NCBI GenBank assembly: GCA_002315595.1
Contig: DCHG01000062.1
Coordinates: 4,076-68,075 of the forward strand
Direction of reading: 5' to 3'
Length of the DNA: 64,000 bases
DNA from: Clostridiales bacterium UBA1758
Lineage (GTDB): Bacteria > Bacillota > Clostridia > Oscillospirales > UBA1758
The translations under genes and the position numbers were made by a program. The notes below the pieces were generated by a model that did no database searches, was not told the origin of the DNA, and worked only from the letters and a program-made list of their open reading frames with translations. Positions 36,002 to 60,301 of the stretch are shown piece by piece (positions within the stretch are counted from its first letter, which is position 1; each line of letters begins with the position of its first letter).

Positions 36002-36226
36002 ACAAAAGCTATGACGAAGACAACGCCGTCGCAGAACACTTTTCAGAGAGTCGGGGATGCTGTGAGCCCGGCAGGTGAAGACGGAACGGTCACTTCCGAG
36101 CCCATCGGGGATAACCCGATGCGTCCGCGCACGTTAAGCGCATACGAGAGGGCTCTTTTTTAGAGTCAACTTGGGTGGTACCACGGTATTTTTTCGCCGT
36201 CCCAAATTCGGGACGGCGTTTTTTTA
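36002..36226 (+). promoter_or_regulatory. T-box riboswitch leader, valine specifier (GUC)
   Basis: AGAGAG and GCTGTGAG stem I elements are present. GTC at 36089-36091 is followed by A in a specifier-loop context. The T-box sequence aacttgggtggtaccacgg lies at 36168-36186. The terminator cgccgtccc...gggacggcg plus T7 lies at 36195-36225. Confidence 0.88.
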
Positions 36227-43609: not shown

Positions 43610-43822
43610 CCGTTTGCCCTCGCTTGTCTGAAATATGTATGGTTCGCTCGTCAATAATTCTCTTGCTATACTCATTTTGCTCGATATTTCACGAAAACCA
43701 GCATTCGTTATTATTTTTTCGTTGTGTCGGATTGTTTTTTTCTTGCTTTCTATTTCAACATTACGCAAAGCGGATAATGTTTAGGTTCATGTGTTTCCAA
43801 GGAAATCAATCGATTGATAAAA

Positions 43823-45274
43823 TTACTTTTGGGAATGATAAAACACGGTTCGAATTTTAGAAAATACCTCTTTCACCAACCTGTCCTTTGCCAAAACCGC
43901 GCATACGAAATACACACTGCCTCCAATCAAAATTTGTAAAAATGTTGTTGACAATTTTGACGGAAGCGTCCTTGTAGCAAAAGCAATAACAAAGTACATA
44001 ATAACCGCTTGTACAGCATAATAAAGAGCCGTCCGTAGAATCCCCTCAAATTTAATCTGTTTTGTCATATAAACATATTGAATAACTGCACAAACACAAC
44101 TAGTTAAAATCGTCGCAAACGCCGCACCCATAAATCCATATTTCGGGATCAATACCGCATTTACCAATATGTTTAATATCATTGCACTAAACTGAGACAA
44201 CATCAGAATTTTGACTTGATTTGTAGCAGTAAAATATTGACTTCCGGAAACCCCCATCAAAGTATTTGTCAATAAAATCGGTGCCATAACCTTTATCGCT
44301 TGCACCGTTGGAATGAATTCATTTCCCAAATACCACGGAATGAATTTTTCTGAAATTGCAATCATTCCAAGCATCGCAGGAAAAGAAATAAATAACAAAC
44401 ACCTCGCAGATTTATTTAACAAACTCTGTATTTGTTCTTTATTCTCTCTTTTAAATTCATTTGCAATCCTAGGCATTATCGCATTATTAATCGCCAGAAT
44501 AAATGCCAACGGTATCGTGAGTATTTTTTCCGAGTAATCATAAAACGCAACTGCTTGAGAATTATCCGTCATCAATTCTATCATTATTTTATCACATTGC
44601 GTGTAAATAATCGTGCCTACCGAAGGGAGAAATAGCAATGCTGAATTGATTAAGTCCGTTTTAACATTGCTGAAATCCAAATGTGGCTTACGAACATATC
44701 TCTTAATTTGCGTAAATGAGATCGCATTTGCTAATGCTATCGATATCCCTTGAATAAATAAATATTTATCGATATCATTACTATCTTTAACAAATAGGAA
44801 AATGCTAACCACCGCGATTATTTTAGTCAGCATATTTTTCAATAATGCCCACTTCATATCCTCAACACCCACAAAAAGCCATGTCGGATCTATGAAATAG
44901 CCTATCATATAGGAATAATATATCAAAAACAGACTTCGATATTTTCCGATAGACATTGTAACTGCAAAGTATACAACCGAGCCGAAAATTGCAATTACCA
45001 CTCTTGACGACATTATTTGCCAAAAAACATTTGATATTGCATCCGGATCGTCCCGAACATACGCAATTTGTCTATTCCCATAGTTATAAATACCAAGTAT
45101 TACAATAGAGCAAATTAATGTTGTTGCCGAATTTACATAACCGTATATTCCTGTTCCAATCGGTCCCAATATGCGTGACAAGTAAGGCGCAGTAAAAAGC
45201 GGAATAAGCATCGAAACCATTTGGTATATCAAATTATATATATAGTTTTTGGTAATCTTTCCCATTTTGTTCAT
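43823..45274 (-). CDS. wzx: Oligosaccharide-unit flippase (Wzx, MOP superfamily)
   Basis: 12-14 TM protein with N-terminus NYIYNLIYQMVSMLIPLFTAPYLSRILGPIGTGIYGY, typical of polysaccharide flippases. Confidence 0.8.
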   Translation of the reverse strand: MNKMGKITKNYIYNLIYQMVSMLIPLFTAPYLSRILGPIGTGIYGYVNSATTLICSIVILGIYNYGNRQIAYVRDDPDAISNVFWQIMSSRVVIAIFGSVVYFAVTMSIGKYRSLFLIYYSYMIGYFIDPTWLFVGVEDMKWALLKNMLTKIIAVVSIFLFVKDSNDIDKYLFIQGISIALANAISFTQIKRYVRKPHLDFSNVKTDLINSALLFLPSVGTIIYTQCDKIMIELMTDNSQAVAFYDYSEKILTIPLAFILAINNAIMPRIANEFKRENKEQIQSLLNKSARCLLFISFPAMLGMIAISEKFIPWYLGNEFIPTVQAIKVMAPILLTNTLMGVSGSQYFTATNQVKILMLSQFSAMILNILVNAVLIPKYGFMGAAFATILTSCVCAVIQYVYMTKQIKFEGILRTALYYAVQAVIMYFVIAFATRTLPSKLSTTFLQILIGGSVYFVCAVLAKDRLVKEVFSKIRTVFYHSQK

Positions 45275-46248
45275 TTGTTTTTTTGTTTTTCATATTTTTT
45301 CTTTATCTTAAAATAACTGAGGGTTTTTTTTATTGAAATTCGATCTCGGTTTTGCATATACACCCTATAATAATATGCCAGTTTGTTTTTCTTGCCATAT
45401 TTTTTTACCAAATCGGAAGTTATTTCTCCATCGAATGACTTAATAACATCCGGATAGATCAAAAAACGGTCGAAAGAATCAACCCAAAGTTTCATCGGTC
45501 TGCAAAAAAAGTGAATATACAAATATTCCTCTTGGAACAAATCACTGCTTGCATTAATATAATAGCGAGATAGTTTTCCTTTTTCCCACAGAAATAAATT
45601 AAACTTATTTTTCCAGGCCTCGCATTTCTCTTTTCCCTGCAAGAAAAAACCGGCTTCGTATTTCTCCAGTCCGGCGTAAACAGTATCGGTAAATGAACGA
45701 AATTGGTATTTTTCATATATTTTTCGAATCAATTGAACATCTGTACAACAAATTTCGTCTGTTATAAAATCGTCATTGTACGATTCATCCTCTATTGCTA
45801 ATCTATACCGTAAATTAACTTCGGGATTATTTCTGTAAATCGTCGCATGACCCTGATTTCCGATTTTTTCATATTTCTGCAACATTTCACTTGTGTAGAA
45901 CCGTCTGATATTCCCCCACAATAAATCAATGTCGCAGTATCCCCAAAAATCAAAATCTTTTAGATACTCATGAAAAATATCACCGTACGCCACTTTATAG
46001 TCACACAATTTATAGGGTGTTTTTAGATTTATATGAAAATCGTACTTCCTCTGAATAAAGGACTGCATTTCTTTAAAAGACAGGTAAACAACTTTCACAT
46101 TTTCCGGGTACTCGTAGCAAGTATCATCATCAATAAACAAAATCCAATTAATTGTCGGGTTGTATTTGCATGAGTTTAACCACATTTGAAAATATGATGG
46201 TAAATGACCGAAATACAGAACAACAAAGCAAATACTGATTTCATTCAT
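45271..46248 (-). CDS. DUF6625-like protein (putative glycosyltransferase seen in capsule loci)
   Basis: VVLYFGHLPSYFQMWLNSCKYNPTINWILFIDD and FWGYCDIDLLWGNIRRF match what I remember of this family. The biochemical activity is not established. Confidence 0.5.
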   Translation of the reverse strand: MNEISICFVVLYFGHLPSYFQMWLNSCKYNPTINWILFIDDDTCYEYPENVKVVYLSFKEMQSFIQRKYDFHINLKTPYKLCDYKVAYGDIFHEYLKDFDFWGYCDIDLLWGNIRRFYTSEMLQKYEKIGNQGHATIYRNNPEVNLRYRLAIEDESYNDDFITDEICCTDVQLIRKIYEKYQFRSFTDTVYAGLEKYEAGFFLQGKEKCEAWKNKFNLFLWEKGKLSRYYINASSDLFQEEYLYIHFFCRPMKLWVDSFDRFLIYPDVIKSFDGEITSDLVKKYGKKNKLAYYYRVYMQNRDRISIKKTLSYFKIKKKYEKQKNK

Positions 46249-46250
46249 AA

Positions 46251-47510
46251 TTATTTCCCGCCCATTATTTCTTCAATCAACTGATTTTCATCACATTCTA
46301 AATAATGTTTCAAATATGTTTGTCCATATTTCCCACTGATTTCTACTTGAATTGTATTATTGGACCATTCAACATCATTTAGCACTTGTACCTTTGAAAT
46401 TACACTCTTTAACCAACAAAATCTAATTGTCATACATAAACGCTGTGCGAATGGCAACTCTGATTCTAACCAATGAAACACCCTGTTCGGCGTTGTCTGT
46501 TTAATGATATCAAAAAAGCATCTATCCACATAAGGTCTATTTGGTTTCATTCCATGACATATCGAGGAACTATGGACTCCGATTGGAAAGGATAATATCG
46601 GCATAGGAAAGAATGTCATAGGCGAATCATTATCCAATGCAATAACCCTGCATATCTCATTGTCGGCATTAAAATCCACAAAATAATTATTTTGTTTATG
46701 ATCTCTTTGAAAACAAATTGCATCAAAATAATTCAACCGATTCAACTCTTTTTGGAAAATCGGAGAAATGTGCTGTTTTTCCTCCAAAGACATATCTGTG
46801 GGACATATGCCATTGCACTCCTTTGTGACAATCCCAACCCTCTCAATGCCGTCATAGCATAATACCGCAAACCAGCAATTTGGAAACATATCATCTAATT
46901 CGAACAAATCTGCCAGTTTTTTTGTAGCGACGCTCATCATCGGGCGAAATATCTGATAGTGCCCTTGTTTGATAAAATTATTCAATTTAAATGAATATAT
47001 CTCGTTTCTGATGAATAAAACAAATTCAGTGCCAAAGTTTTCAAGAAATTCAACAACTTTTTCTTTCCCCTTTGAATAATCCTGAAACAGTCCCGGAAAT
47101 CCCACTTTCCCGAGATCCCATCCGCTATATCTTTTTCTTGTCGTTTCATAATGACTCTCAACATACGCATTCATCTTTTTAAGTTTTCTGATATTCTTCA
47201 GATTACTTAACTCGTTCTTAATTTGCAACTCTATTTCCTCTTTTTTTTCAAAGGAGTTAATATTTTCAAAATAATCTGTTATTACATCCTCAATATATAT
47301 TTGAAATTTACTATGAATTCGACATTCTTTAAAGTAAATGGTTGTTTCATCAACTACTGCGCGAATAATATTGTTTGAAGATGAAAAATAGGTGACATCT
47401 TCTCTCTTGCATTTATACACCGGAAGATCATCTTTGTCAATTTCCACTCGTTTTGATCCACTTCCGTATGTAACTTTTCGAATCAAATCAACTATTCGTT
47501 GCTTTATCAT
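46251..47510 (-). CDS. Hypothetical 419-aa protein with a PI3K/PI4K-like (atypical kinase) catalytic-loop pattern
   Basis: Clean ORF packed tightly between glycan genes. Residues 257-300 read NRLNYFDAICFQRDHKQNNYFVDFNADNEICRVIALDNDSPMTF. See the finding for details. Confidence 0.6.
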   Translation of the reverse strand: MIKQRIVDLIRKVTYGSGSKRVEIDKDDLPVYKCKREDVTYFSSSNNIIRAVVDETTIYFKECRIHSKFQIYIEDVITDYFENINSFEKKEEIELQIKNELSNLKNIRKLKKMNAYVESHYETTRKRYSGWDLGKVGFPGLFQDYSKGKEKVVEFLENFGTEFVLFIRNEIYSFKLNNFIKQGHYQIFRPMMSVATKKLADLFELDDMFPNCWFAVLCYDGIERVGIVTKECNGICPTDMSLEEKQHISPIFQKELNRLNYFDAICFQRDHKQNNYFVDFNADNEICRVIALDNDSPMTFFPMPILSFPIGVHSSSICHGMKPNRPYVDRCFFDIIKQTTPNRVFHWLESELPFAQRLCMTIRFCWLKSVISKVQVLNDVEWSNNTIQVEISGKYGQTYLKHYLECDENQLIEEIMGGK

Positions 47511-47532
47511 TGTCTAACAAAACCTCGTTATA

Positions 47533-48336
47533 TTACTTGATAACGCCTTGTCCTTTGATTATTCTGCGTATAATACGTTCAATATGTAAAATTTTCATTA
47601 CTGCTATTGTATGCTGTAATATAGTTACTCTTCTAAGATATTTTTTTATCCATAATTTATCTACACCATTTCTTAATGCGATTGCTTCGTGTTCTTTTAA
47701 TGTCACGGTTTTAAAATGCTTTGAACTCTCTCCGCCTTCACGAAATCCACTTAATATTTCGTCTACATAATAGAATTTCGCACCGGCAAAATACATTCTT
47801 GACAAAAGTTCATAATCCATTGCGCATCTATAGTCTAAAGAAAACATCCCATACTTTTCATATGCCTTTGACGAAACAAAGACAGACGGATGATTAAGAA
47901 GAAATGTGTATTCCATTTTAGACAGATCCGTATCCGGCTTTTTTATATATCCATCGGATAATATGTTGCGGAATTTAATCGTTTTTCCAAAAACAACATC
48001 AATATCAGTCTGGTTTTCAAAAATACGGCTGATGGTTTTCACGGCCCCGGGATATAGCACATCATCCGAATTGATTATTCCAATAACATCGCCTGTTGAC
48101 ATCAGTATTCCTTTATTAAATGCATCGCTGATTCCCTTATCGGGTTCGGAAACATATCGTGTAACAACTCCCGGATATTGCTTAATTATGTCCAATGTTG
48201 AATCGGTTGACCCTCCATCAATTATAACATACTCTAAATCAGGGGAATTTTCGGCTTTCACACTCTCTATCGTTTCTCGCAAAGTCTTTTCACTGTTATA
48301 AGTTACCGTTATTATCGACACCCGTAAATTCTTCAT
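47533..48336 (-). CDS. Glycosyltransferase family 2
   Basis: VSIITVTYNSEKTL...VIIDGGSTDSTLDII...EPDKGISDAFNKG. ATG at 48336 is preceded by AAGGAAAG. Confidence 0.85.
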   Translation of the reverse strand: MKNLRVSIITVTYNSEKTLRETIESVKAENSPDLEYVIIDGGSTDSTLDIIKQYPGVVTRYVSEPDKGISDAFNKGILMSTGDVIGIINSDDVLYPGAVKTISRIFENQTDIDVVFGKTIKFRNILSDGYIKKPDTDLSKMEYTFLLNHPSVFVSSKAYEKYGMFSLDYRCAMDYELLSRMYFAGAKFYYVDEILSGFREGGESSKHFKTVTLKEHEAIALRNGVDKLWIKKYLRRVTILQHTIAVMKILHIERIIRRIIKGQGVIK

Positions 48337-48355
48337 TACATCTTTCCTTCTGTGG

Positions 48356-49594
48356 TCAATCGATTGTTGCAATTCCTTGTTGACTGATAACTTTGGAGTC
48401 ATTCCCACTTACAATATAAACGACAACAAACAAGAAAAATCCCATGTTGAAATAATGCCCATATCTTAATAATCTCAACAGGAAATAACTAATACACATC
48501 AATTGAGTAATCTTGTTCGTTTTCAAATTGTCCGTTGTCCGATTTTTATAGATAAAATACACCATACCGGCAACGCCCAATATTCCCGTTTCAGATACAA
48601 TTCGCAAAAATAAAGAGTTTGCATCTTCCTGGTTTAATTGTAATTGAACAGAAGATATTTCAAATATTCCACTATATTTTTTATATGCGATCAAATGCGA
48701 TCCAAGACCGCCCCCCATTCCAAACGTCGATTTAAAGTTTTTTAAAGCCACTTTATAATTTATGAATAAGGTTTGGGTGCTTAAATTAGAGTAATCCTCA
48801 GTTTCTTCAAAAAGGAATAATCGAACTGTATCGTCCACTCTCATTTTGAAAATATCAACATAATTATATGCAACAATAAATAGTGCAATAAATAAAAGTA
48901 TAATGGATATTTGTTTAATTCCGTACTTATATTCCGATAGAATTAATATCAAAACAAACGCAATACCCACAAATCCCGATGATGAAAAAGTACAAATCAC
49001 TCCCATAAGAATAATAATCGCTTCAAAAGGATTAGAAATCATTATTTCGGATTCTTTATTATTGCCAATAAAATAGTAGATTGAAAAAAAGACTGCCGGC
49101 ATCAAAACCAGCGCGCATGCTGATGGCTCGGTGAAAATACCACTTGATCGGTAAAAATCAGTAGATCCTGCCTGGGATGGTACAAGCCATCTCATATCAT
49201 AAATAAAAGATACATTCATTTTGCGTGCAACTTGCTGTAACAATACAAATGCAGCAAGAACGCAAGAATAATCGGTATAAGTCTTTAGCACCGACAGATA
49301 ATTACCTTCGTCAATGATCGATGCATAAAAAATTAAATTCCCGAAAATTCCCAATATTTGCTTTAAAAGCAGAACCATTTCGTTGTTTTTTAAAATAACG
49401 CCAAGTATTCCGTGGATGAAAAAAACTGCAAAAAACAGTAAATATTTATTTGTTATTCTTATTGCTTTATAATTACACAAAAGAATAGAGAATTCGAGAA
49501 TCAAAATAACCTCAGGTGAAAAGACTCCCCCGAGAAAAATCAATAAAATCGCTATTTTTTGTTGCAACTTGGATAATGAAATTCTCATCGTCAT
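48356..49594 (-). CDS. wzy: Wzy-type polymerase / O-antigen-ligase-like membrane protein
   Basis: About 10-12 TM segments with a large loop late in the protein. It sits in a Wzx-containing locus. There is no strong sequence motif, as is typical for Wzy. Confidence 0.65.
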   Translation of the reverse strand: MTMRISLSKLQQKIAILLIFLGGVFSPEVILILEFSILLCNYKAIRITNKYLLFFAVFFIHGILGVILKNNEMVLLLKQILGIFGNLIFYASIIDEGNYLSVLKTYTDYSCVLAAFVLLQQVARKMNVSFIYDMRWLVPSQAGSTDFYRSSGIFTEPSACALVLMPAVFFSIYYFIGNNKESEIMISNPFEAIIILMGVICTFSSSGFVGIAFVLILILSEYKYGIKQISIILLFIALFIVAYNYVDIFKMRVDDTVRLFLFEETEDYSNLSTQTLFINYKVALKNFKSTFGMGGGLGSHLIAYKKYSGIFEISSVQLQLNQEDANSLFLRIVSETGILGVAGMVYFIYKNRTTDNLKTNKITQLMCISYFLLRLLRYGHYFNMGFFLFVVVYIVSGNDSKVISQQGIATID

Positions 49595-50778
49595 CCTCTT
49601 ATTTTTTCGTACAAATCTAAGTATTCCTTCACCATTCTGTTTTTCGAAAATTTCTGCGCATACGTCACAATATTTTCGGAATCAAGTTTAGAAACTTCTT
49701 TAAAGACGGTGCATACCGACGCCAAATCGTGAGACGGAATAATTCTACCCACTTCTTCGGAAATCAATTCCGGCAACGCAGTACTGTCATACACAATTGC
49801 CGGTGTCCCGCATGCCATTGCTTCCACTGTCGGAAGGCCAAACGTTTCCTCAACGCTGGTATTGAGAAATACATCCGCCGTTGAATAAAGCCCTGCGAGA
49901 TCATTTAGATTATCTATCCGTTCTACACTCAATATCTTCTTGGAAAGATGCTTTCTTTCCTTATTCCTTATTCCAACCAATACAACCCGACATTCATCAG
50001 GCAGTATTTCAGCCAATCTAATGAAATCATTCAATCCTTTTCTTTCGCTCCATGTACTTGCAACGCCAAGGATCATATATTTATCTTCAATATTATGTTG
50101 TTGTCTAAATCGGCTCTGTGTCGGCTTAAAATTCTGTAAATCAATGCCGTTGTAGATCGTTTTGCACGGAACTTTTTTCAAAAACGATTGCTTCACCTGA
50201 TTTTCAAGCCATTTTGATACACAAACCAAATGCAAATTGTCGACGGATGTAAATAATTCTTTTTTTCTTTGGTAATTCCATGATGAATTATCGAATATGA
50301 TACTCTTTGGATACGTTTTTTTCTGTGGACAATCATGGCAACCGTATTTCCATCTATCGCATCCAACCATATCATAATGGCAACAGTGTCCGGTAAATGC
50401 CCAACAATCGTGCAACGTCCAAACGATCGGTTTTCCGCTTTTTTTTAAATATTCAAATAAAATATCAACATTAATATAGTATCCGTGAAGATTATGCAAA
50501 TGAATAATATCCGGATCGTACAACTCGATTTGTCGAATCAATTTCCGCGTTGCCTCTTTTGAGAAAAAACCGGCCCTATCCGTTAATCTGGTACAAATAC
50601 CATCAATATAGACTCCCGAGGCATTTCCAATCTTATAATGGGAAATATCTTTATCAATCGTGTTGCGCGCAAAGGCAACCATCCCTTCATTTCCTTGATA
50701 TGAAAGAGATCTGCATAAATCTGTTGCAATACGCCCGGTACTCAAGTTACCAAAAATATTGATATGTAATATCCTCAA
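49591..50778 (-). CDS. Glycosyltransferase family 4
   Basis: The EX7E motif is present (VEETFGLPTVEAMACGTP). The N-terminus RILHINI is typical. TTG at 50778 is preceded by GAAGGG; the track starts at TTG 50799. Confidence 0.8.
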   Translation of the reverse strand: MRILHINIFGNLSTGRIATDLCRSLSYQGNEGMVAFARNTIDKDISHYKIGNASGVYIDGICTRLTDRAGFFSKEATRKLIRQIELYDPDIIHLHNLHGYYINVDILFEYLKKSGKPIVWTLHDCWAFTGHCCHYDMVGCDRWKYGCHDCPQKKTYPKSIIFDNSSWNYQRKKELFTSVDNLHLVCVSKWLENQVKQSFLKKVPCKTIYNGIDLQNFKPTQSRFRQQHNIEDKYMILGVASTWSERKGLNDFIRLAEILPDECRVVLVGIRNKERKHLSKKILSVERIDNLNDLAGLYSTADVFLNTSVEETFGLPTVEAMACGTPAIVYDSTALPELISEEVGRIIPSHDLASVCTVFKEVSKLDSENIVTYAQKFSKNRMVKEYLDLYEKIRG

Positions 50779-50843
50779 AAGAAACCCTTCTTTATTCAAA
50801 ACTCAATCCCGAAAAAACACTTTTCAAATTGATAATTTCCCAC

Positions 50844-51422
50844 TCATTTTTCCAGTTTCCTTATCACTCTCGCGGGGTTTCCGACGATCACGGAGCGATC
50901 CTCGTACTGTCCGGCGACGACGGCTCCGGCTCCGACAATGCAGCCCTCGCCCAGTACAGTTCCCTTCAAAATGATCGAATTGCACCCGATAAAGCAGTTT
51001 TTTCCGATTTTGATCTCCCTTGCGGGGATCAGATCGCTATTACCGCCCGTCGGATCGCACAACAATTCCACCCTTGTTTCCGCATCAAGCGGATGAAAAT
51101 CATTATCGAGAATTTTCACATTTCCCCCGATCGATGTATTATCGCCGATCTCGATCTTTTTTCTGGCATAGATCGTCGCCCCGGAAATTCCGACATGATC
51201 TCCGATGACGATCTCGGCACCGGGCGCACGGGTGACAATAATCGTGCGGCTATATAGCCCCACCAAATTCGACAAAAACGAACTTTTGATCGTTACGCCT
51301 TCACCGATCGAAAGATTTGCGCCTTTTTTATTATAAATCAGCGGCAAGCCCTTCAAAAGAAGTCTCTTTCCGTATTTGATTTTTTGAACTTTCAGCGCAA
51401 TTTTAAACCAGTTGCAATTCAT
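50844..51422 (-). CDS. Hexapeptide-repeat O-acetyltransferase (WcaF/maltose acetyltransferase-like)
   Basis: Left-handed beta-helix repeats (IGDHVGISGATIYA, IGDNTSIGGNVKIL, IGKNCFIGCNSII, VGAGAVV). ATGA overlap with the upstream gene. Confidence 0.8.
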   Translation of the reverse strand: MNCNWFKIALKVQKIKYGKRLLLKGLPLIYNKKGANLSIGEGVTIKSSFLSNLVGLYSRTIIVTRAPGAEIVIGDHVGISGATIYARKKIEIGDNTSIGGNVKILDNDFHPLDAETRVELLCDPTGGNSDLIPAREIKIGKNCFIGCNSIILKGTVLGEGCIVGAGAVVAGQYEDRSVIVGNPARVIRKLEK

Positions 51423-52645
51423 AATTTCGAAATTTCATCCTTATATTTGGAAATACTGCATTCCTTGGACAGATTTTTTTCGACATAATCTCTGCTGTTG
51501 ATTTGAGTCGGTTTATTCTCAATAGCATGACGAAGCATTGCTTCAATTGCGGGATAGTCCCCCGGATCACACACTTCACCGCAACCGATTTCTTCGATCA
51601 AAGTCCTGATCTCGGTCCCCTGCTCCAACACGCCGAGGATCGGTTTATTGATTGCCGCAATCCCGTAAAACTTGCTTGGACAACTCACGCCCTTGATGCC
51701 CTTTGCATTGACGCACCAATGAATGTCGCCGGAATTCAACGAAGCGTTCAGATCCGCCTTATCCTGATACGGGATAAAGACGACATTGGCAAGATCTTTG
51801 TCTTCCTTGTTTTTTTTCAGCGTTTCCAATTTCGCACCTGCTCCGACAAAGGCAAAGACGACATCCGTTCGATCACGAAATGTTTCGATAACTTTCATAA
51901 TGTTTTCAAGGTCATAATACAGTCCGATATTGCCGGAATACATCACAACATATTTTCCCGCAAGACCGTATTTTTCTTTGAATTGAAGCACCTCCGGCGC
52001 GTCCTGCGACAAAGGGTAGATCATTTTTTCGTCGATCCAGTTATTGATCATCACGGTTTTCGGGCATTTTTTGCCGACAAAACGGTTTTTGACCGTTTCA
52101 ACAAGATCCCGTCCGACGGTGATGATCAGATCGGATCTGCCGCAAGAGAAAATATCGAGTTTTTTCATCACCCAAACGACGAAACGATTGGATGAGTAAT
52201 TCACGGCACAGATCTGTTCCGGGTTAAAATCCTGAATACAGTACACGAGTTTTGCGCGTTTCATCCATTTACCGATGACGCCCAAAAGCCCACCGAGGAT
52301 CGGCGGCTGAGAAATGGTAAAAACGGCATCCTGACCGCCCGCCTTTTTGCAGGCAGCGATCGCCCGAAAAAAATAGGCAAGAATATTCTTGATCCTGCTG
52401 ATCTTGTTTTCTTTTGAAAACTCCGGAACGCGAACACGGATGATGCGCACACCATTGATCTGCTCAAAATAGTACTTTTTATTCCGATATGCTTCTTCGA
52501 TCGTGCCGGAATAGGACGGTACAGTGCAAATCACGGTGATTTCGAACCGATCGGTCATTCCTTCCGCCAGGTCCTGCAAAATCTGACCGGTCGATGCGAC
52601 ATCGGGGTAATAATAATGGGCGAACATCAAAAGTTTTTTCTTCAT
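51419..52645 (-). CDS. Glycosyltransferase family 4 (WbuB/WcaI-like)
   Basis: MKKKLLMFAHYYYPDVASTGQILQDLAEG is a typical WbuB/WcaI-type N-terminus. ATG at 52645 is the likely start; the in-frame GTG at 52714 and ATG at 52660 are alternatives. Confidence 0.8.
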   Translation of the reverse strand: MKKKLLMFAHYYYPDVASTGQILQDLAEGMTDRFEITVICTVPSYSGTIEEAYRNKKYYFEQINGVRIIRVRVPEFSKENKISRIKNILAYFFRAIAACKKAGGQDAVFTISQPPILGGLLGVIGKWMKRAKLVYCIQDFNPEQICAVNYSSNRFVVWVMKKLDIFSCGRSDLIITVGRDLVETVKNRFVGKKCPKTVMINNWIDEKMIYPLSQDAPEVLQFKEKYGLAGKYVVMYSGNIGLYYDLENIMKVIETFRDRTDVVFAFVGAGAKLETLKKNKEDKDLANVVFIPYQDKADLNASLNSGDIHWCVNAKGIKGVSCPSKFYGIAAINKPILGVLEQGTEIRTLIEEIGCGEVCDPGDYPAIEAMLRHAIENKPTQINSRDYVEKNLSKECSISKYKDEISKL

Positions 52646-52648
52646 TTT

Positions 52649-52658
52649 CCCCCCCCCC
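52649..52658 (-). repeat. Homopolymeric G10 tract (C10 on the plus strand) 3 nt upstream of the GT4 start codon
   Basis: The plus strand reads ttcattttCCCCCCCCCCat. The coding strand reads ATGGGGGGGGGGAAAATGAAG. Confidence 0.95.
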
Positions 52659-52730
52659 ATTATTCGTGCAAAATTCGTCGGTTTTGATTGCGTTCTTTCG
52701 AATTTACCATACACCGACTTCTATTATAAT

Positions 52731-52759
52731 ATTTTATCATAATATGATCCGAAATTCAA
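52731..52759 (-). promoter_or_regulatory. Sigma-A type promoter with an extended -10 for the minus-strand glycan operon
   Basis: The minus strand reads TTGAAT (52759-52754), 17-nt spacer ending in TGa, TAAAAT (52736-52731). Confidence 0.5.
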
Positions 52760-52890: not shown

Positions 52891-55863
52891 ATGACAAAAT
52901 CCATCACCGCATTAACCTCATTGTTCCTACAAACCTCGCTTCAGGATTCCGAGGCTGATTACCGACGTTCCGTCACAAATGCTGGCTTTCCGCACTGGGA
53001 CGCCGTTGTCATCACCGCCTCCAATCGGTTGCAGGCAGAGGGCTATATGCTCCAAATCGAATCACGCAGAAGCCGTCTTCCGCAGAATACGGCTTTTCTC
53101 GTCATTCCCGATGAAGGCGACAAACGCGTCGGCTCCGCCGGATCAACGCTTTCCGTCATTCGGGAACTGAAATCGCGTTTCGGCGACCTTTCCGATAAAA
53201 GATTTCTTGTGATTCACGCAGGCGGAAACTCATCACGCTGTCCGCAATATTCTGCGCTCGGCAAACTTTTTGCGCCTCTTCCCACGATGCTCGGCGACAA
53301 GCCTGCCACACTGTTCGATATGTTTCTTGTCACGATGGCGTCCGTTCCCGGCAGGATGAAAAACGGAATGTTGCTGCTTTCGGGCGATGTCACACTGCTT
53401 TTTAATCCTCTAATGTGCGATTTCGGTGATGCCTCCGCCGCCGTCATTTCGTTTACGGAAGATGTCGAAACCGGCAAGGATCACGGCGTATATGTGAAAA
53501 ACCCCGTCACGGGTAATGTGAAAAGTTTTCTGCACAAGCAACCCGTTGAGGTGTTGCGCGATCGCGGAGCCGTCGACCGTCGCAATCTCTGTTCCATCGA
53601 CACGGGTGCCATTTGGCTCTGTCCCGAAATTCTCGACCGTCTTTTCTCACTTGTCGACACCGACGTAAAATATCATTCCGTCGTCAACGACACCGTCCGT
53701 CTGTCGCTTTATTCCGACATCGCCTATTGCCTTGCCGAGGATAGCACGCTTGCGCGGTTTCAAAACGAAACGCCCGAGGGCAGTTTCTGCCCCGAATTGA
53801 CTGCGGTACGCGAAAAGTTATGGAACGTCATCGGCTCGTATAATATGAAACTGATGAACCTTGCACCGGCGAAATTCGTTCATTTCGGATCCATTCCCGA
53901 AATTCTCGATCTTGTCAACACCGGCGTGGAAGAATACACTTTCATCGGTTGGGAAAAACAAATTGGTTCTTCTCTCGGAAACGCTTCAAATCCGGCATAC
54001 AATTCTGTGCTGAACGACGGTGCCATCATCGGCGACGGCAGTTTTTTGGAGGTTTCCTATGTCCGTTCCGGCGCAGTGATCGGCAAAAATTCGTATGTTT
54101 CGTTTGTTGATCTTCATCGTGGCGATCGGATCCCGGACAATGTTCTCGTTCACGGTTTGCGACACTCTAACGGGAAATTCACCTGCCGGATCATGAACGT
54201 CACAGATAATCCAAAGAGTAATTATCTCTTTGGTATTCAACTATCTGTAATCGGAAATAAACTAGGTGCAAAACTTTCCGAAACGCTTTGGGACGCAATG
54301 CTCTATCCCGAATGTGACAGTATCGACGAGGCAGTTCAGGCGAGTTTGAACCTCTACGATCTCGTTGTGAACGACTCCGGCGATCTGGATCAATGGCAAA
54401 GCGCGACAAAAAAATCGCTTTGTTCCGGTTTCAATGATGCCGATCCGAAAGCGATCATCGATTGGAACCAGCGCATGGAAGAACTCGTTCAAATGGATGA
54501 ATTCGCAAATGCCATTCGATCGGGAATTCCCGCAAGCACGATCAAACCATCCTCTGCAAAACTTTCAGAAATTCAAAAAAAGTGGGTTGCGGATCAGTTT
54601 AAGGATCTTGATCCGACTGATCTTTCGGATTTTTCCTATGCGATCCGCCTTCACTATTATCTTGGTACTGTGTTCGGCGAAGAGGAGTTTACCGCGTCCT
54701 GCTATCAACTGATCGCCCAAACAGTGCTTCATTCGACACTTGCCGGTCTGAACTACCGCGACCAATTGAAGATCGCATCCGACGAAGTCGTCGTCCGTCT
54801 TCCGCTTCGCGTCAACTGGGGCGGCGGTTGGACGGACACCTGTCCCCATTGTTTGGAACACGGCGGCATCGTTTTGAATGCCGCGATCGCGATCGACGGC
54901 AAATATCCCGTTGAAGTTCGGCTCGTCAAAATCCCGGAACACAAAATTGTATTTGACAGCCGTGATATGGATGTCCACGGCGAATTCACCGATATTGCAC
55001 CGTTGCAGGAAACCGGGAACCCCTTTGATCCGTTTTCATTGCAAAAAGCCTGCCTGCTCGCCTGCGGAATTATCCCGAAGACAGGCGGCAACCTCGACGC
55101 TATCCTGACACGCCTCGGCGGAGGCTTTGTCATGCACTCCGAGGTCAAAAATGTCCCGAAAGGCTCCGGTCTCGGTACATCTTCCATTCTTTCGGCTGCC
55201 GCGGTCAAGGCGATGTTGCGCTTTGTGGGCGCGCCATTCACGGAAGAAACGCTTTATTCCACCGTGCTTGCGATGGAACAAATCATGTCCACCGGGGGCG
55301 GATGGCAGGATCAGGTGGGCGGATTGATTCCGGGCATCAAACTCGTTTCGTCCTCACGCGGTATCGACCAGCGGCTGAACGTCGAGCATATCCACCTTTC
55401 CGATGCGACAAAATCGGAATTAAATGAGCGTTTTGCGATTATTTACACCGGTCAGCGTCGTTTGGCGCGAAACCTTTTGCGCGATGTTCTCGGTCGGTAT
55501 ATCGGTAACGAGCCGGACAGTCTGTACGCACATCGTGAGATCCAAAAAATAGCAAATTCCATGCGTCTTGCGCTGGAAAACGGCAATGTGGACGAATTTG
55601 CGAGACTTTTGGATCAACACTGGTCATTGTCCAAAAAAATAGACTCCGGCAGTAGCAATTCGCTGATCGAACAGATCTTCATCGCAATTGACGATTTGAT
55701 CGACGCAAGAATGTGTTGCGGTGCCGGTGGAGGCGGTTTTTTGCAAGTCGTGCTGAAAAAGGGCGTGACCAAAGGCGATGTGCATCATCGCTTGAAGGAT
55801 GTGTTCCTCGATTTCGCCGTTGATGTTTGGGAAAGCGCGATCGTGTACGAGATCAATGCGTAA
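52891..55863 (+). CDS. fkp: Bifunctional L-fucokinase / L-fucose-1-phosphate guanylyltransferase
   Basis: 990 aa. The N-terminal half resembles the fucokinase-family nucleotidyltransferase region (VVITASNRLQAEGY, GSAGSTL). The C-terminal half is a GHMP kinase (PKGSGLGTSSILSAAAV, CGAGGGGF). Length and architecture match Bacteroides Fkp as I remember it. Confidence 0.85.
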   Translation: MTKSITALTSLFLQTSLQDSEADYRRSVTNAGFPHWDAVVITASNRLQAEGYMLQIESRRSRLPQNTAFLVIPDEGDKRVGSAGSTLSVIRELKSRFGDLSDKRFLVIHAGGNSSRCPQYSALGKLFAPLPTMLGDKPATLFDMFLVTMASVPGRMKNGMLLLSGDVTLLFNPLMCDFGDASAAVISFTEDVETGKDHGVYVKNPVTGNVKSFLHKQPVEVLRDRGAVDRRNLCSIDTGAIWLCPEILDRLFSLVDTDVKYHSVVNDTVRLSLYSDIAYCLAEDSTLARFQNETPEGSFCPELTAVREKLWNVIGSYNMKLMNLAPAKFVHFGSIPEILDLVNTGVEEYTFIGWEKQIGSSLGNASNPAYNSVLNDGAIIGDGSFLEVSYVRSGAVIGKNSYVSFVDLHRGDRIPDNVLVHGLRHSNGKFTCRIMNVTDNPKSNYLFGIQLSVIGNKLGAKLSETLWDAMLYPECDSIDEAVQASLNLYDLVVNDSGDLDQWQSATKKSLCSGFNDADPKAIIDWNQRMEELVQMDEFANAIRSGIPASTIKPSSAKLSEIQKKWVADQFKDLDPTDLSDFSYAIRLHYYLGTVFGEEEFTASCYQLIAQTVLHSTLAGLNYRDQLKIASDEVVVRLPLRVNWGGGWTDTCPHCLEHGGIVLNAAIAIDGKYPVEVRLVKIPEHKIVFDSRDMDVHGEFTDIAPLQETGNPFDPFSLQKACLLACGIIPKTGGNLDAILTRLGGGFVMHSEVKNVPKGSGLGTSSILSAAAVKAMLRFVGAPFTEETLYSTVLAMEQIMSTGGGWQDQVGGLIPGIKLVSSSRGIDQRLNVEHIHLSDATKSELNERFAIIYTGQRRLARNLLRDVLGRYIGNEPDSLYAHREIQKIANSMRLALENGNVDEFARLLDQHWSLSKKIDSGSSNSLIEQIFIAIDDLIDARMCCGAGGGGFLQVVLKKGVTKGDVHHRLKDVFLDFAVDVWESAIVYEINA

Positions 55864-55932: not shown

Positions 55933-56006
55933 CGGATATTTTCACTCTGCTCCGCACGACGGAAATAGGAATCGTCCACAGATGGAATATGGAAAATTTC
56001 GGCACA

Positions 56007-56888
56007 TCAATCACAATTTCCTTCGGCTCTGTTTTCTTCTTTGGAAACGATTTCACGAACTTCATCCAAAGATTTCCAATCGGCGGTATGTTTTTTCATT
56101 ACTATTTTGTGTCGAATTCTAACAACAAATTTAGGGAAACAGGAACGAATATGATAAAGTTTTCCCAGTGATTCTTTTGTCGTTTCGTATTTTTTCTTTG
56201 AGATTAGGTTATATTTATATAAAATCTTATTGTCTTCCAAGGCTACCAAAACTCCATTATTGGTTCCTATTCCATCACAGTCAAAAATCGACACGATTTG
56301 ACTAATTGATTGATATTGTACCCCCCCGGAAAATGCTTTTACGAAGAAACCAAAATCAGCGGCCAACCCTTCTTGTAACGAAAAAGGGTTGTTTTTTAGA
56401 TATTTGCTTCGAGTAATAACGGATTGGTGGCAAAACTCCATTTCTCCCAAAAATGACAATTTACTCGGATCCTTAGACCTGTAAACCCGATACTTATTTT
56501 GATACTTAAAAACCACATCGCCGTATATTATATCCGCGTTATTTTTATCTGCTCTCTCAAATACAAGCATCGAATATTCATCAAAAAAAATATCACCTGC
56601 ATTCAAATAAAGACACCATTCGCCGGTTGCAAGAGCCGCGCCTTTATTCATTGCGTCGTATATTCCCTTGTCCGATTCACTGTAAAAACGGATCAGTAAT
56701 CCCAATTTCTCCGCTTTCTCAATATATTCTTTCATTGCTTCTGCCGTTCCGTCCGTTGACGCCCCGTCAACTATCACCATTTCAATCGTACTCATATCAA
56801 TTTTCTGATACATAACGGATTCAACAGTTTTCAATAAATCTTTTTTCGCGTTTTTGCATATCGTGATGATCGAATATTCAGGCTTCAT
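56007..56888 (-). CDS. Glycosyltransferase family 2
   Basis: YSIITICKNAKKDL...VIVDGASTDGTAEAM...ESDKGIYDAMNKG. It is a paralogue of the GT2 at 47533..48336. ATG at 56888 is preceded by GGGAGGG. Confidence 0.85.
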   Translation of the reverse strand: MKPEYSIITICKNAKKDLLKTVESVMYQKIDMSTIEMVIVDGASTDGTAEAMKEYIEKAEKLGLLIRFYSESDKGIYDAMNKGAALATGEWCLYLNAGDIFFDEYSMLVFERADKNNADIIYGDVVFKYQNKYRVYRSKDPSKLSFLGEMEFCHQSVITRSKYLKNNPFSLQEGLAADFGFFVKAFSGGVQYQSISQIVSIFDCDGIGTNNGVLVALEDNKILYKYNLISKKKYETTKESLGKLYHIRSCFPKFVVRIRHKIVMKKHTADWKSLDEVREIVSKEENRAEGNCD

Positions 56889-56898
56889 AGCATTCCCT
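56832..56898. repeat. Direct repeat copy A (ribosome-binding site plus first ~15 codons of the GT2 gene)
   Basis: Near-identical to 58005..58070. The shared core is ttttcgcgtttttgcatatcgtgatgatcgaatattcaggcttcatagcattccct. Confidence 0.9.
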
Positions 56899-56918
56899 CC
56901 CAGCATAAAGTGATCCTC

Positions 56919-58031
56919 TCACCAATAACATCCATTTTCAACCTGTTTATAATTTTGGGGCGGAGTTTCGATTGGGCGAATCCAATTTTCATTGATAAAC
57001 TTCTTATATAAAAGATCGGAAGTGAGCAGAAATTCTCCATAAACTCCAAAAAAAGCCGGCAACCGTCCGCAAGGTTCAATTGCTATTTTACCCATTTTCT
57101 TGATCTCACACCCCAAAGGAAATCCGTATGCTCCTGCTCCAATAAGTGCAATATCAAAATCTATTTTCCGAATATCATCGATCATTTTCCTCAACACCTG
57201 AAAAAAATTGGTAAATCCTTCCGGTCGTTCGCCCACCTGAGTTGTATAAGTCTTGTATGTAATCAACTCAAAATCCGGCAACTCACATTCAGGCGAATAT
57301 GCCCATTCCGATTTGCGTTCATATTGTAATCTAATTGAATCCGTAAATGAATTTGCAACCAACACTTTTTTCCCTTTTAATGCACCAATCCATGTATCCC
57401 GAATCGGTTTATCACAATACGGCCCAAATTCAAAATATTGCTTTTTTCTATCATCAACCATTTTAACATGGCGAAGAAAATGACCATATGAAAACAACTG
57501 ATATTTAAACGGCGGAAAACTAACTGGCATATAATCGCATTCGGAATAACAAGAAATTAACAGTTCGGAAAACTCATCTACCGCTTGATCGATTTCTTTA
57601 TAGTCATCAGAAAAAAAGCCCGAAGTTTGATATAACCACTCAATCCAGCAAGTTTTGTACCTTTTTGTCACCTTGGCTCGTTTTTTACAATATGAATTTA
57701 CAATTGCCGCTTCAGTATTTCCCATCCTCCCCAGGAAAGTTGGTGTGCCATCCAATATCCTGTTTTTAATTTCATCAGTTTCTAAAATATCAATAGTTTT
57801 ATAACCTAAACCTTTTAATATTTGAAAATATGTCGTATCGCAATCGTGCTTTATCAGTGTTAGAAATGCACGAACTATATTGATTATAAAATAATCAATA
57901 CTATCTCTAATCGTAAATTTATACACTATATTTTCCTCTTTTGAAACAAGAATTTCACTTACTTTTTTATCTTTTACTCTTTTGAATGCACATCCATAAT
58001 TTTCCAATAAATCATTTTCGCGTTTTTGCAT
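56919..58031 (-). CDS. Hypothetical protein, possibly a GT-D-fold (DUF1792-like) glycosyltransferase
   Basis: 370-aa ORF. FLGRMGNTEAAIV and DIALIGAGAYGFPLGCEIKKMGKIAIEPCG loosely resemble GT-D family motifs. The ATG at 58031 has no ribosome-binding site; the GTG at 57926 is preceded by AAGAGGAAA. Confidence 0.5.
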   Translation of the reverse strand: MQKRENDLLENYGCAFKRVKDKKVSEILVSKEENIVYKFTIRDSIDYFIINIVRAFLTLIKHDCDTTYFQILKGLGYKTIDILETDEIKNRILDGTPTFLGRMGNTEAAIVNSYCKKRAKVTKRYKTCWIEWLYQTSGFFSDDYKEIDQAVDEFSELLISCYSECDYMPVSFPPFKYQLFSYGHFLRHVKMVDDRKKQYFEFGPYCDKPIRDTWIGALKGKKVLVANSFTDSIRLQYERKSEWAYSPECELPDFELITYKTYTTQVGERPEGFTNFFQVLRKMIDDIRKIDFDIALIGAGAYGFPLGCEIKKMGKIAIEPCGRLPAFFGVYGEFLLTSDLLYKKFINENWIRPIETPPQNYKQVENGCYW

Positions 58032-58070
58032 ATCGTGATGATCGAATATTCAGGCTTCATAGCATTCCCT
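58005..58070. repeat. Direct repeat copy B, in front of the 370-aa orphan gene
   Basis: Same core as copy A, with one substitution plus a 1-nt deletion in the A-run. This leaves a 28-codon remnant ORF (58060..57974, MKPEYSIITICKNAKMIYWKIMDVHSKE). Confidence 0.9.
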
Positions 58071-58145
58071 TCCGCTACATTTCATTGCATTTTTATCAAA
58101 ATATCATCAATTCACGTAATTGAAAAATAGTCTATACCGAGTCAT

Positions 58146-59270
58146 TCACAGGATCTTTTCCGTGATATTCAATACGGTCTCTATAATTTGATCCATATCA
58201 TAGTACTTATATTCGGCTAGTCGTCCGCAAAACAGAACATTTTGTTCTTTTAATGCTAATTCTCTGTATTTTTTTAATAAAATCTCGTTCTTTTCATCGT
58301 TTATTGGATAATACGGTTCAACTCCGGGTACCCATTCAGTACTATATTCCTTGGTGATGACAGTCTTTGGTATCTCGTTTCCGTTTTCATCCTTGCCGAA
58401 TTGAAACCACTTATGTTCAATCATTCTGGTCCACGGAGTATCCGCATCAGTATAATTAATAACGGCGTTTCCTTGGTAATTCGAACAATTAATTATTTCA
58501 TTTTCAAATCTAACCGATCTATATTCCAGATGACCATATTGATAATCGAAAAAGGCATCAATCGGACCGGAATAAATAATGTTCTCGGCTACAAATTCAT
58601 ATTCGGCTTTATTTTTTAAATAATCGACACCTAATTCTACATCCGCACCATCGAGCATCTTTTTTACCATTTCCGTATATCCACCATTTGGAATTCCCTG
58701 ATATTTAGCATTAAAATAATTATTGTCATAGGTAAATCGGACAGGTATGCGGTCGATAATGAATGTCGGTAATTGCGTGCACTCTCTCCCCCATTGCTTC
58801 TGCGTATATCCCTTAATCAGTTTTTCATAAATATCCGTTCCGACTAGCGAAATGGCCTGTTCTTCAAGATTTTTCGGAACGCGAATTCCTGACAATTTTC
58901 TCTGTTTTTCAATGAAACTTTTCGCTTCATCGGGCGATACAATCCCCCACATTGAATTAAATGTATACATATTAAACGGAAGCGAATATAATTCCCCCTT
59001 ATAATTGGCAATTGGGGAATTCACAAAATGATTAAAACTCGCAAACCGATTGACATAGTTCCATACTTTTATATTATTCGTATGAAAAATGTGTGCGCCA
59101 TATTTATGCACATCAATTTGGTCAATTCTTTCGGTGTAAATATTACCTCCAATATGTGACCTTTTATCGAGAACTAACACAGTTTTCCCTTTTTCTATCG
59201 CTCTTTGTGCAAATACAGAGCCACTTAATCCCGCGCCAACTATGAGAAAATCATATTTTTTCTTTTTCAT
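58146..59270 (-). CDS. glf: UDP-galactopyranose mutase
   Basis: YDFLIVGAGLSGSVFA...LVLDKRSHIGGNIYT...HKYGAHIFHTN...GRLAEYKYYDMDQ are classic Glf motifs. ATG at 59270. Confidence 0.92.
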   Translation of the reverse strand: MKKKKYDFLIVGAGLSGSVFAQRAIEKGKTVLVLDKRSHIGGNIYTERIDQIDVHKYGAHIFHTNNIKVWNYVNRFASFNHFVNSPIANYKGELYSLPFNMYTFNSMWGIVSPDEAKSFIEKQRKLSGIRVPKNLEEQAISLVGTDIYEKLIKGYTQKQWGRECTQLPTFIIDRIPVRFTYDNNYFNAKYQGIPNGGYTEMVKKMLDGADVELGVDYLKNKAEYEFVAENIIYSGPIDAFFDYQYGHLEYRSVRFENEIINCSNYQGNAVINYTDADTPWTRMIEHKWFQFGKDENGNEIPKTVITKEYSTEWVPGVEPYYPINDEKNEILLKKYRELALKEQNVLFCGRLAEYKYYDMDQIIETVLNITEKIL

Positions 59271-59287
59271 ATTTCCAGCCCCAGCAT

Positions 59288-60301
59288 TTAATCGCAACGA
59301 TTTGTATACCACGGAACAAGTTTCAACAACCAAAATGCTAAATACCGAGTTCTTCTCATACTTTTAATAAGAATTCCGGAATTTCCAAAATCTTTTCCTT
59401 CAATCACTGTATATATTTCCGGACTGATTTCTTTCATTTCCGTGTCAAATTTTCGAAGTTTTTGCAAAGTGGCTTTGTTAATTCCACAACGATAGAGATA
59501 TCGAAACGCCGTTCTTCCGGTAATTCCGCAGACTCTTAATAGGTAACTTTTGTTCGGAGTATTTTTTGAAATTAAGTGATAATTCTCCGAAATCATTAAT
59601 GAAATCTTCAAAAGATCATCAATATGCTTTTTTATAGATTCAGTCGATACCGATTGCCCGTCCCGCCCAATACGATAATTGTACATATTGATATGATAAT
59701 AGCGAATCGTTGTTGCTACCAAGAATGGTAAGTAAAAATAGACTGTATCCGTATACAATAAATGCTCCGGCAACTCAACACCCGATTTTAAGAGAACTTC
59801 TGTCCTATATGTTATATTCTGATGGCCATAATGTGAAGAAGGTACATTAATCGCTATATTTTGCAAATCCGAAATATCGAACGTCTCGATTTTTTTCATA
59901 TCTATATTATTTTCGCAAAAAGATCGCATATCTGATATTATCACATCTGCATTTTCATTCTCCAACTGTTTCAAAAAGGCTCCCAATGCACCTTTTTCCA
60001 ACATATCATCTCCGTCAAGCGTTTTGAAATATATACCGGTTGCATGATTGATTACATAATTTTGAACCGACCCGTATCCACCATTTTCTTTATGAACAGG
60101 GAAAATTGAATTTGGGTATTTCATTGCATATTCTTTTGCGATTGAGAGTGTTTCGTCTGTTCCACCATCGTCCACCACGAATATTTCCAATTTATCCATA
60201 ATTTCAGGTACAATTAATGAATCCAATGTATCTTTTATTGTATTTTGGGCATTAAATGCCGCAATTGATATCGTTAGAACTTTGTTCATTTTAACTTTCA
60301 T
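59288..60301 (-). CDS. Glycosyltransferase family 2 (candidate galactofuranosyltransferase, by position next to glf)
   Basis: LTISIAAFNAQNTIKDTLDSL...FVVDDGGTDETLSIAKEY. ATGA overlap with the upstream gene. Confidence 0.8.
   Translation of the reverse strand: MKVKMNKVLTISIAAFNAQNTIKDTLDSLIVPEIMDKLEIFVVDDGGTDETLSIAKEYAMKYPNSIFPVHKENGGYGSVQNYVINHATGIYFKTLDGDDMLEKGALGAFLKQLENENADVIISDMRSFCENNIDMKKIETFDISDLQNIAINVPSSHYGHQNITYRTEVLLKSGVELPEHLLYTDTVYFYLPFLVATTIRYYHINMYNYRIGRDGQSVSTESIKKHIDDLLKISLMISENYHLISKNTPNKSYLLRVCGITGRTAFRYLYRCGINKATLQKLRKFDTEMKEISPEIYTVIEGKDFGNSGILIKSMRRTRYLAFWLLKLVPWYTNRCD

Follow-up and report, generated by a model that had tools for sequence, protein, structure and literature searches.

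A G10 homopolymer in the Shine-Dalgarno position of a gut Clostridia surface-polysaccharide operon, and its length variation between assemblies

Phase variation by simple sequence repeats has been documented mostly in pathogens. Poly-G/C contingency tracts are found in capsule, lipooligosaccharide (LOS) and glycosylation genes of Campylobacter jejuni, Neisseria and Haemophilus (PMC11868660; PMC6321876), and C-terminal and intragenic poly-G switching is on record for Helicobacter canadensis and Neisseria gonorrhoeae (PMC2823697, PMC5320596). In the 5' untranslated region (5'UTR) of espR of Mycobacterium tuberculosis, a G7 homopolymer is variable among isolates, and a +1 insertion raises translation by refolding of the leader (PMC11898584). 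Here we analyze a run of ten G residues (the G10 tract) on the minus strand of a 64-kb stretch of DNA (contig DCHG01000062.1; the whole stretch is called the window below). The tract occupies the Shine-Dalgarno (SD) position of the first gene, encoding a GT4 glycosyltransferase related to WcaI, of a polysaccharide operon, and its length differs by one G between nearly identical assemblies.

The window tract shares several properties with the loci of Campylobacter, Neisseria and Haemophilus: a long G run (9-10) at a surface-glycan locus, a length difference of one unit, and related loci in which G9 appears to be the ON state and G8 or G10 the OFF state. It differs from them in that their tracts normally lie in the 5' part of an open reading frame (ORF) or between the −35 and −10 promoter elements, whereas the window tract is the SD itself, and in that its host is an uncultured commensal Firmicute and not one of the Gram-negative pathogens of the classical contingency loci. 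The switching in H. canadensis and N. gonorrhoeae resembles tracts of the related loci described below (at GT2 and GT4 3' ends and within acyltransferase genes) and not the window tract, which stands upstream of the ORF. The nearest mechanistic precedent that we found is espR, since there too the G tract is in the untranslated leader; unlike that of espR, however, the window tract overlaps the SD and its predicted folding does not depend on length. In Moraxella catarrhalis, the leader of uspA1 reportedly carries a poly-G tract with high expression at G10 and low expression at G9, the mRNA level being said to be affected. Like that tract, the one in the window is a leader poly-G downstream of a promoter with G9 and G10 variants, uspA1 expression reportedly being graded and not ON/OFF; the uspA1 tract is said to lie far upstream of the start codon and not to be an SD, whereas the window tract is the SD. 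A search of the papers available gave no direct precedent for a homopolymer that itself forms the SD or ribosome-binding site.

Read on the minus strand, the sequence is CACGAATA-ATG(52660-52658)-GGGGGGGGG-AAA-ATG(52645-52643)-AAG-AAA-AAA-CTT, in which the following features are distinguished.

52649..52658, minus strand: G10 homopolymer, at −13 to −4 from the A of the true start codon, in the Shine-Dalgarno region.
52643..52645, minus strand: true ATG start of the WcaI-like GT4 (MKKKLLMFAHYYY...), from homologue N-termini and gene callers.
52658..52660, minus strand: upstream in-frame ATG abutting the tract, with no SD in the preceding GCACGAATA; probably unused.
52712..52714, minus strand: GTG opening the mechanical ORF 51419..52714; an implausible start.
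51419..52645, minus strand: GT4 glycosyltransferase, WcaI-family-like, 408 aa, first gene of the operon (Pfam Glycos_transf_1, NCBIfam WcaI).

The tract includes the G of the upstream ATG, reads C10 on the plus strand and is located in a divergent intergenic region of 245 nt. No other G/C homopolymer longer than 7 occurs in the window, the next being one C7 and one C6; C runs of lengths 4 to 7 number 98, 22, 1 and 1 and are followed by the single run of 10. The tract is therefore within the range of contingency loci (a G/C tract of about 8 or more, above the genomic background), and the first-pass annotation, which had called it conspicuous, was right both in this and in its coordinates. The C7 (plus strand, 56321-56327; G7 in the sense direction) comes second in length among the window's G/C runs; it lies inside a GT2 gene (56007-56906), is invariant in three other assemblies and could be used as an internal control homopolymer.

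Whether a change of tract length could shift a reading frame depends on the start codon. In 70 homologues inspected, the N-terminus reads M-x(0-3)-KKKLLIFAHYY, some being slightly longer, which corresponds to the position of ATG 52645, and the same ATG was picked by gene callers in three assemblies. The homologues thus place the true start of the WcaI-like GT4 at ATG 52645. As had been noted in the first-pass annotation, ATG 52660 (15 nt upstream) and GTG 52714 (69 nt upstream) are both in frame with it. By reading of the sequence, initiation at ATG 52660 would give MGGGK-MKKK with G10; with G9 it would yield a 5-codon upstream ORF (uORF) that ends in a TGA overlapping the main ATG, and with G8 or G11 an ORF that is out of frame and overlaps the main start. 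No record of the MGGGK-extended protein was found by look-up. GTG 52714 is about 10 nt from the predicted transcription start, and the homologues have no corresponding extension. ATG 52660 is probably not used as a start codon either. Because the true start lies downstream and neither ATG 52660 nor GTG 52714 is supported, the G10 tract belongs to the untranslated 5' leader, and a change of its length would therefore cause no frameshift in any frame likely to be translated. Frameshift phase variation acts on a tract inside the translated frame, and this tract is outside it; the frameshift switch that had been proposed from the sequence is not supported, as the homologues start at ATG 52645 and ATG 52660 is not preceded by an SD.

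Initiation led by an SD is to be expected here because the host is a Firmicute, and the neighbouring genes of the locus carry ordinary GGAG/GAGG SDs at −12 to −7. In about 78 homologous gut-metagenome loci, GGAGG, GAGAGGA or GAGGGGAG is found 6-12 nt before the equivalent ATG; some of these SDs are G-rich, e.g. AGAGGGGAGAT, and a homopolymer at the SD position was found in none of the ~78. An SD is a G-rich stretch complementary to the 16S rRNA 3' end, 5-10 nt before the start; the G10 tract, at −13 to −4, agrees with this when the generic Firmicute anti-SD is used. These results indicate, by position and by SD context, that the G10 run is the SD of the first operon gene, which bears out its earlier placement at the SD position of ATG 52645; it would pair with the anti-SD. 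It shares with the homologous GT4 SDs the position relative to the ATG and the presumed pairing to the CCUCC anti-SD core. It differs from them in being a pure homopolymer, which entails one G·U wobble in the core, a choice of several registers and an intrinsic instability of length, and a poly-G run embedded in an SD appears so far to be unique to this locus.

The influence of tract length on pairing was calculated with a simple model of pairing to ACCUCCUUU without gaps, to which the Salis spacing penalty was added. In this model the best pairing energy falls from −4.6 kcal/mol at G6 to −6.2 at G7, −7.7 at G8, −8.2 at G9 and −8.7 at G10, and remains at −8.7 kcal/mol for G11 and longer. The best register at G10 has 8 pairs at an aligned spacing of 4-5. 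G10 is thus the shortest length on the plateau, and the step near it is about 0.5 kcal/mol; from G9 to G10 we calculate that this amounts to about 1.25-fold when the Salis exponent is applied. The AAA spacer holds the tract's 3' end at a constant 3 nt from the AUG, and a longer tract adds extra G's at the far end only. Of the altered ribosome loading that the first-pass annotation had suggested, what is left in the models is a graded and weak effect (about 0.5 kcal/mol between G9 and G10), with no further gain above G10 and no folding switch. Any effect on expression would be of the size that the model predicts.

Length variation was looked for in other assemblies. The identical GT4 protein is encoded on three contigs besides the window, the next relatives being at 72% identity; exact flank-pattern scans of genome and metagenome contig collections gave 0 matches (the pattern being valid on the window and on the JGI contig described next), and the locus had no match in the plasmid collection. 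The locus is rare. One of the three contigs, JGI contig 3300001598|EMG_10000828 (IMG 3300001598), was assembled with Velvet from Illumina HiSeq reads of faeces of a six-year-old Asian elephant at Hagenbeck Zoo (PMC4160196). The two others come from the Logan assemblies SRR1221442 and SRR5323875, of which SRR1221442 is plausibly part of SRP040073. The tract of the JGI contig is G9; those of the window, SRR1221442 and SRR5323875 are G10. When the JGI contig is compared with the window along 21.2 kb, the one-G tract indel and two single-nucleotide polymorphisms (SNPs; 57759 and 57729) are the sole differences, and along 15.5 kb the SRR1221442 and SRR5323875 contigs show no difference from the window. 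The two SNPs are 30 nt apart and both lie in the GT-D-like gene 56919-58031. The comparison of tract length across sequences, which had been recommended with the first description of the run, therefore gives G9 in one assembly and G10 in three that are otherwise nearly identical, a difference that may include error and comes from assemblies that probably belong to one study. The concern that the run might be an assembly artefact is met in so far as it is present in all four (three G10, one G9) and is not the artefact of a single one. Within this near-clonal population hardly any sites vary, and the tract is among those that do, as a slippage-prone run is expected to; slippage would be the probable cause.

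The leader was then considered for promoter elements and structure, for which three further features matter.

52731..52759, minus strand: sigma-70-like promoter candidate TTGAAT-17-TAAAAT with TG extension, from a consensus scan (9/12 matches), which is not evidence of function.
52656..52664, minus strand: AAUAAUGGG, 5' arm of a predicted 9-bp stem, including the first three G's of the tract (ViennaRNA and sequence).
52612..52620, minus strand: CCCAUUAUU, 3' arm of the predicted 9-bp stem, within codons 9-12, those of the conserved AHYY motif.

The candidate −10 is at 52736-52731, with the G10 tract about 73 nt downstream, close to the ~70 nt given in the first-pass annotation (a pattern match only), and the implied 5' leader is about 70-80 nt. 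No promoter-like site spanning the tract was found in the promoter scan, so that the arrangement is not that of Neisseria porA, opc and fetA, where the tract is between −35 and −10 or in an activator site. Minimum free energy (MFE) folding of the leader with ViennaRNA, for G6 to G13 and from two candidate transcription starts, gave −39 to −41 kcal/mol throughout, and none of the predicted folds showed a length-dependent release or sequestration of the start region; a length-dependent leader structure was rejected on this basis. The 9-bp stem is predicted for G6-G9, other pairings taking its place at G10 and longer. The perfect 9-bp complementarity of AAUAAUGGG and CCCAUUAUU would enclose the SD and the start codon in a loop, and it was not seen in the homologues, in which the AHYY motif is invariant. 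In the folding model, tract length would alter only the loop of this stem. No known RNA element was found in the intergenic region in Rfam at E-values up to 1.

The explanation that we put forward, with about an even chance of being right, is that the G10 tract is a functional, degenerate and hypermutable SD in which one-step changes are buffered and which acts at most as a weak rheostat. A long G homopolymer would be prone to replication slippage, and G9 and G10 would arise in this way within the near-clonal population. The tract would serve as the SD of the gene that opens a Wzx/Wzy-type polysaccharide operon acquired horizontally. With the A3 spacer fixing the 3' edge and the anti-SD using only about 8 of the G's, one-step changes near G10 would be buffered; translation of the GT4 would respond in a small, graded way, as might, through coupling, that of the acetyltransferase, with a plateau at G10 or longer. 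An appreciable loss of translation is predicted only on contraction to about G6 or fewer.

Several points weigh against this explanation. First, the anti-SD in the pairing model is the generic Firmicute sequence, which may not be that of the host, and the model is crude. Secondly, only one of the four assemblies deviates, and all four probably derive from one study or population, so that they do not count as separate strains. Indel errors at long G runs occur both in Illumina reads and with de Bruijn assemblers, and the G9 call could be a sequencing or assembly error. Thirdly, a G10 or C10 run was found in 8 of 100 dinucleotide-preserving shuffles of the window (mean 0.10 per window), so composition by itself makes the run no more than moderately unlikely. 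Fourthly, the promoter candidate is a consensus match only, and a transcription start in or beside the tract would change the picture. Finally, if one-step changes have nearly no effect, a case for selected mutability is difficult to make, and the tract is possibly a neutral accident.

Related glycan loci provide a background for these alternatives. In 160 loci (L005-L164, 1.2 Mb), 22 G/C runs of at least 8 were found, all 22 being G on the sense strand of the matched gene and 20 lying in GT4-centred human-gut loci. Counts for lengths 6 to 12 are 24, 11, 7, 10, 3, 1 and 1, with a second mode at 9. The sense-strand excess of long G runs could be due to selection for mutable tracts, to G skew of the leading strand, or to both, and the G-rich leading strand may account for part of the strand bias. 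In one case, 11 human-gut contigs have a poly-G tract within an O-acyltransferase gene (Acyl_transf_3), which stands two genes downstream of the GT4 homologue. With G9 (6 contigs) the ORF is intact at about 345 aa, and with G8 (4 contigs) or G10 (1 contig) the products are truncated. The tract is at 5028-5036 in L105 (G9), 5028-5037 in L151 (G10) and 5027-5034 in L132 (G8), and it occurs also in L099, L100, L112, L117, L128, L129, L144 and L163; the run is kept while the flanks differ at many positions. As read from these sequences, the G8/G9/G10 site has the standard signature of an ON/OFF contingency locus.

A second case concerns a leader. In P0005, a group with a 70%-identical GT4, two contigs from different Sequence Read Archive (SRA) runs agree at every position of 6,228 nt but for one G, the tract being G12 in L170 (212-223) and G11 in L171 (212-222); a further contig, L172, begins in the run at 1-11. 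This tract, directly preceded by an ATG, lies in a gene-free leader of about 890 nt, and about 115 nt separate it from a strong TTGACA-17-TATAGT promoter upstream (L170 68-96). The long leader may hold a regulatory RNA. Between the window leader and the L170/P0005 poly-G leader we found no homology beyond the G run.

Other poly-G runs of the related loci are listed here as observations. L102 (701-712, G12) and L155 (912-919, G8) carry intergenic poly-G in the same context, TTTTCTA-Gn-TAGAATAG followed by CAAAACCCCTTGCG; these runs stand directly before TAGAAT, about 1.8 kb upstream of the GT4 homologue, and may be promoter or leader tracts. Poly-G also occurs near the 3' ends of GT2/GT4 genes and in a second Acyl_transf_3 gene (L088 5659-5669, G11; L099 3722-3731, G10; L104 3758-3766, G9; L164 5254-5262, G9; L150 4044-4052, G9). 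The runs near the GT2/GT4 3' ends could switch the C-terminus, to judge from their position, and the second Acyl_transf_3 gene is split into two frames by its run, an apparent OFF state. The related-locus data raise the prior for mutable and sometimes selected poly-G runs, and they do not thereby show a regulatory effect of a run embedded in an SD.

Among the alternatives, a neutral origin survives best and is possible, although we regard it as doubtful. A G-rich SD (cf. GAGGGGAG) would have slipped into a homopolymer that still works as an SD, and G9 would be an error or a neutral polymorphism. G-rich homologue SDs such as AGAGGGGAGAT are plausible precursors, the model gives near-equal function for G8 and longer, and the shuffles and the single deviation among probably non-independent assemblies, both mentioned above, are in line with this. 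The minus strand is the G-rich strand along the whole window, and G runs on it fit a mutational skew. However, real G/C runs in the window decay about 5-fold per base and stop at 7, which is steeper than the shuffles imply and extrapolates to an expectation of about 0.01. The tract also falls in the stretch of ~10 nt where the SD of a surface-glycan operon's first gene is placed, a gene of the class that is classic for contingency tracts. Moreover, long sense-strand G runs are in clear excess and conserved in the related loci, in 21 kb only two other differences accompany the tract indel, and in P0005, another lineage, a parallel tract indel is the sole difference over 6.2 kb. If the tract is neutral, the locus calls for caution in annotation, as the mechanical ORF runs upstream through the tract and invites a false reading as a frameshift switch.

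It is unlikely that the tract is a phase-variation switch, in which single-G changes turn the GT4 and possibly the operon ON or OFF or change expression strongly. Such a switch might act through initiation at AUG 52660 (a fusion at G10, a uORF at G9, an occluding ORF at G8 or G11), through a length-dependent leader structure or through mRNA stability. The frame consequences of AUG 52660 are real in the sequence, and a G9/G10 length polymorphism is present. Related gut Clostridia glycan loci do have ON/OFF poly-G (the acyltransferase tract, intact at 345 aa with G9 and truncated with G8 and G10), and run lengths over their 1.2 Mb peak at 9 without a steady decay. In addition, the 9-bp stem joins the 5' end of the tract to codons 9-12, and a one-base indel in the 5'UTR G tract of M. 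tuberculosis espR is a precedent for a change of translation (PMC11898584). Against these points, the only SD-like element is the tract itself, which lies downstream of AUG 52660, and the N-terminal extension was never seen in the homologues inspected. From G6 to G13 there is hardly any predicted change in the folding energy of the leader or in how the start region pairs, SD pairing changes by at most 0.5 kcal/mol per step near G10, and only one downstream gene is positioned for translational coupling.

Highly improbable, finally, is a transcriptional role, in which the tract is in or beside a promoter or start and its length alters initiation or reiterative transcription (either with AATAAT, 52664-52659, as a −10 and initiation inside the G run, or by an effect on the divergent fkp promoter): AATAAT does abut the tract, the predicted transcription start of espR in M. 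tuberculosis is inside its G tract (PMC11898584), and the G12 of L102 and the G8 of L155 stand directly before TAGAAT, but the promoter scan gave no site there, no acceptable −35 is found 16-18 nt upstream of AATAAT, the tract is outside any −35/−10 spacer, and the nearest plus-strand promoter-like −35 (52703) is 45 nt or more further downstream on that strand.

The operon that the G10 tract precedes and its surroundings comprise the following.

50844..51422, minus strand: hexapeptide-repeat sugar O-acetyltransferase, whose ATG overlaps the GT4 stop by 4 nt.
43823..50799, minus strand: the rest of the operon, consisting of GT4, Wzy-like polymerase, GT2, a 419-aa protein without family hit, DUF6625 and Wzx flippase (Pfam).
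52891..55863, plus strand: Fkp-like fucokinase/fucose-1-phosphate guanylyltransferase, 990 aa (Pfam Fucose_pyrophosphorylase and GHMP kinase).
36002-36207: T-box leader (101 bits), upstream of the valyl-tRNA synthetase gene valS (36248-38881).

The first gene product matches Pfam Glycos_transf_1 with 29.4 bits (cut-off 26.4) and aligns over its full length (4-407 of 411) with the NCBIfam WcaI family (NF007640) at 159.7 bits, the cut-off being 276. It appears to be a GT4-fold enzyme related to WcaI, below the curated family cut-off and not a demonstrated member. Together the genes form an eight-gene minus-strand Wzx/Wzy-type operon, of which only the second gene, that of the acetyltransferase, has the arrangement of translational coupling (the 4-nt stop/start overlap); no record of the acetyltransferase protein was found by look-up. 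Pfam upheld the gene content that had been assigned from the sequence at first, the Wzy_C match being below threshold and the 419-aa orphan having no hit. The Fkp-like gene, whose product scores 387 bits against NCBIfam PRK13412 (below the 721 cut-off), is divergent from the WcaI-like GT4 operon. WcaI is a putative fucosyltransferase of colanic acid, and fucose-containing surface glycans are known for Bacteroides. The pairing of Fkp with a WcaI-like GT4 suggests that this gut Clostridia bacterium may make a fucose-containing surface polymer.

The GC content is 33-42% in two islands (43800-52000 and 56000-60000), compared with about 52% in the housekeeping part of the window, and fkp between them is at about 50%. 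The second low-GC block encodes GT2, the GT-D-like protein, UDP-galactopyranose mutase, GT2, NTP_transf_5, an epimerase and GT2. These features suggest that the low-GC glycan blocks around fkp are horizontally acquired, mosaic polysaccharide loci. As for the host, a Bacteroidota bacterium had been suspected from Fkp, and Bacteroidota do not use SD sites. This candidate was rejected in view of the T-box leader, the ordinary SDs of the neighbouring genes and the best Fkp relatives, which are at 66-69% identity in metagenome-assembled genomes of Acutalibacteraceae and other Clostridia. Judged by these features, the host is an uncultured Firmicute of the Clostridia (Oscillospirales/Acutalibacteraceae-like) from elephant faeces.

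A stronger interpretation of the G10 tract, which we rate as quite unlikely, is that it is a selected 'mutable ribosome-binding site' that sets the translation of a fucose-related glycan operon stepwise, and at the same time an instance of a wider and so far undescribed use of sense-strand poly-G contingency tracts in the surface-polysaccharide loci of commensal gut Clostridia (in leaders, acyltransferase genes and glycosyltransferase 3' ends). This wider pattern is a more interesting lead than the window tract. If a hypermutable homopolymer SD does operate here, it would be an unusual form of graded tuning of translation. Invertible promoters are known from Bacteroides; if the poly-G tracts are true contingency elements, uncultured commensal gut Clostridia would, alongside these, diversify their surface glycans by slippage, which would bear on phage resistance, immune recognition and the persistence of strains in the gut.

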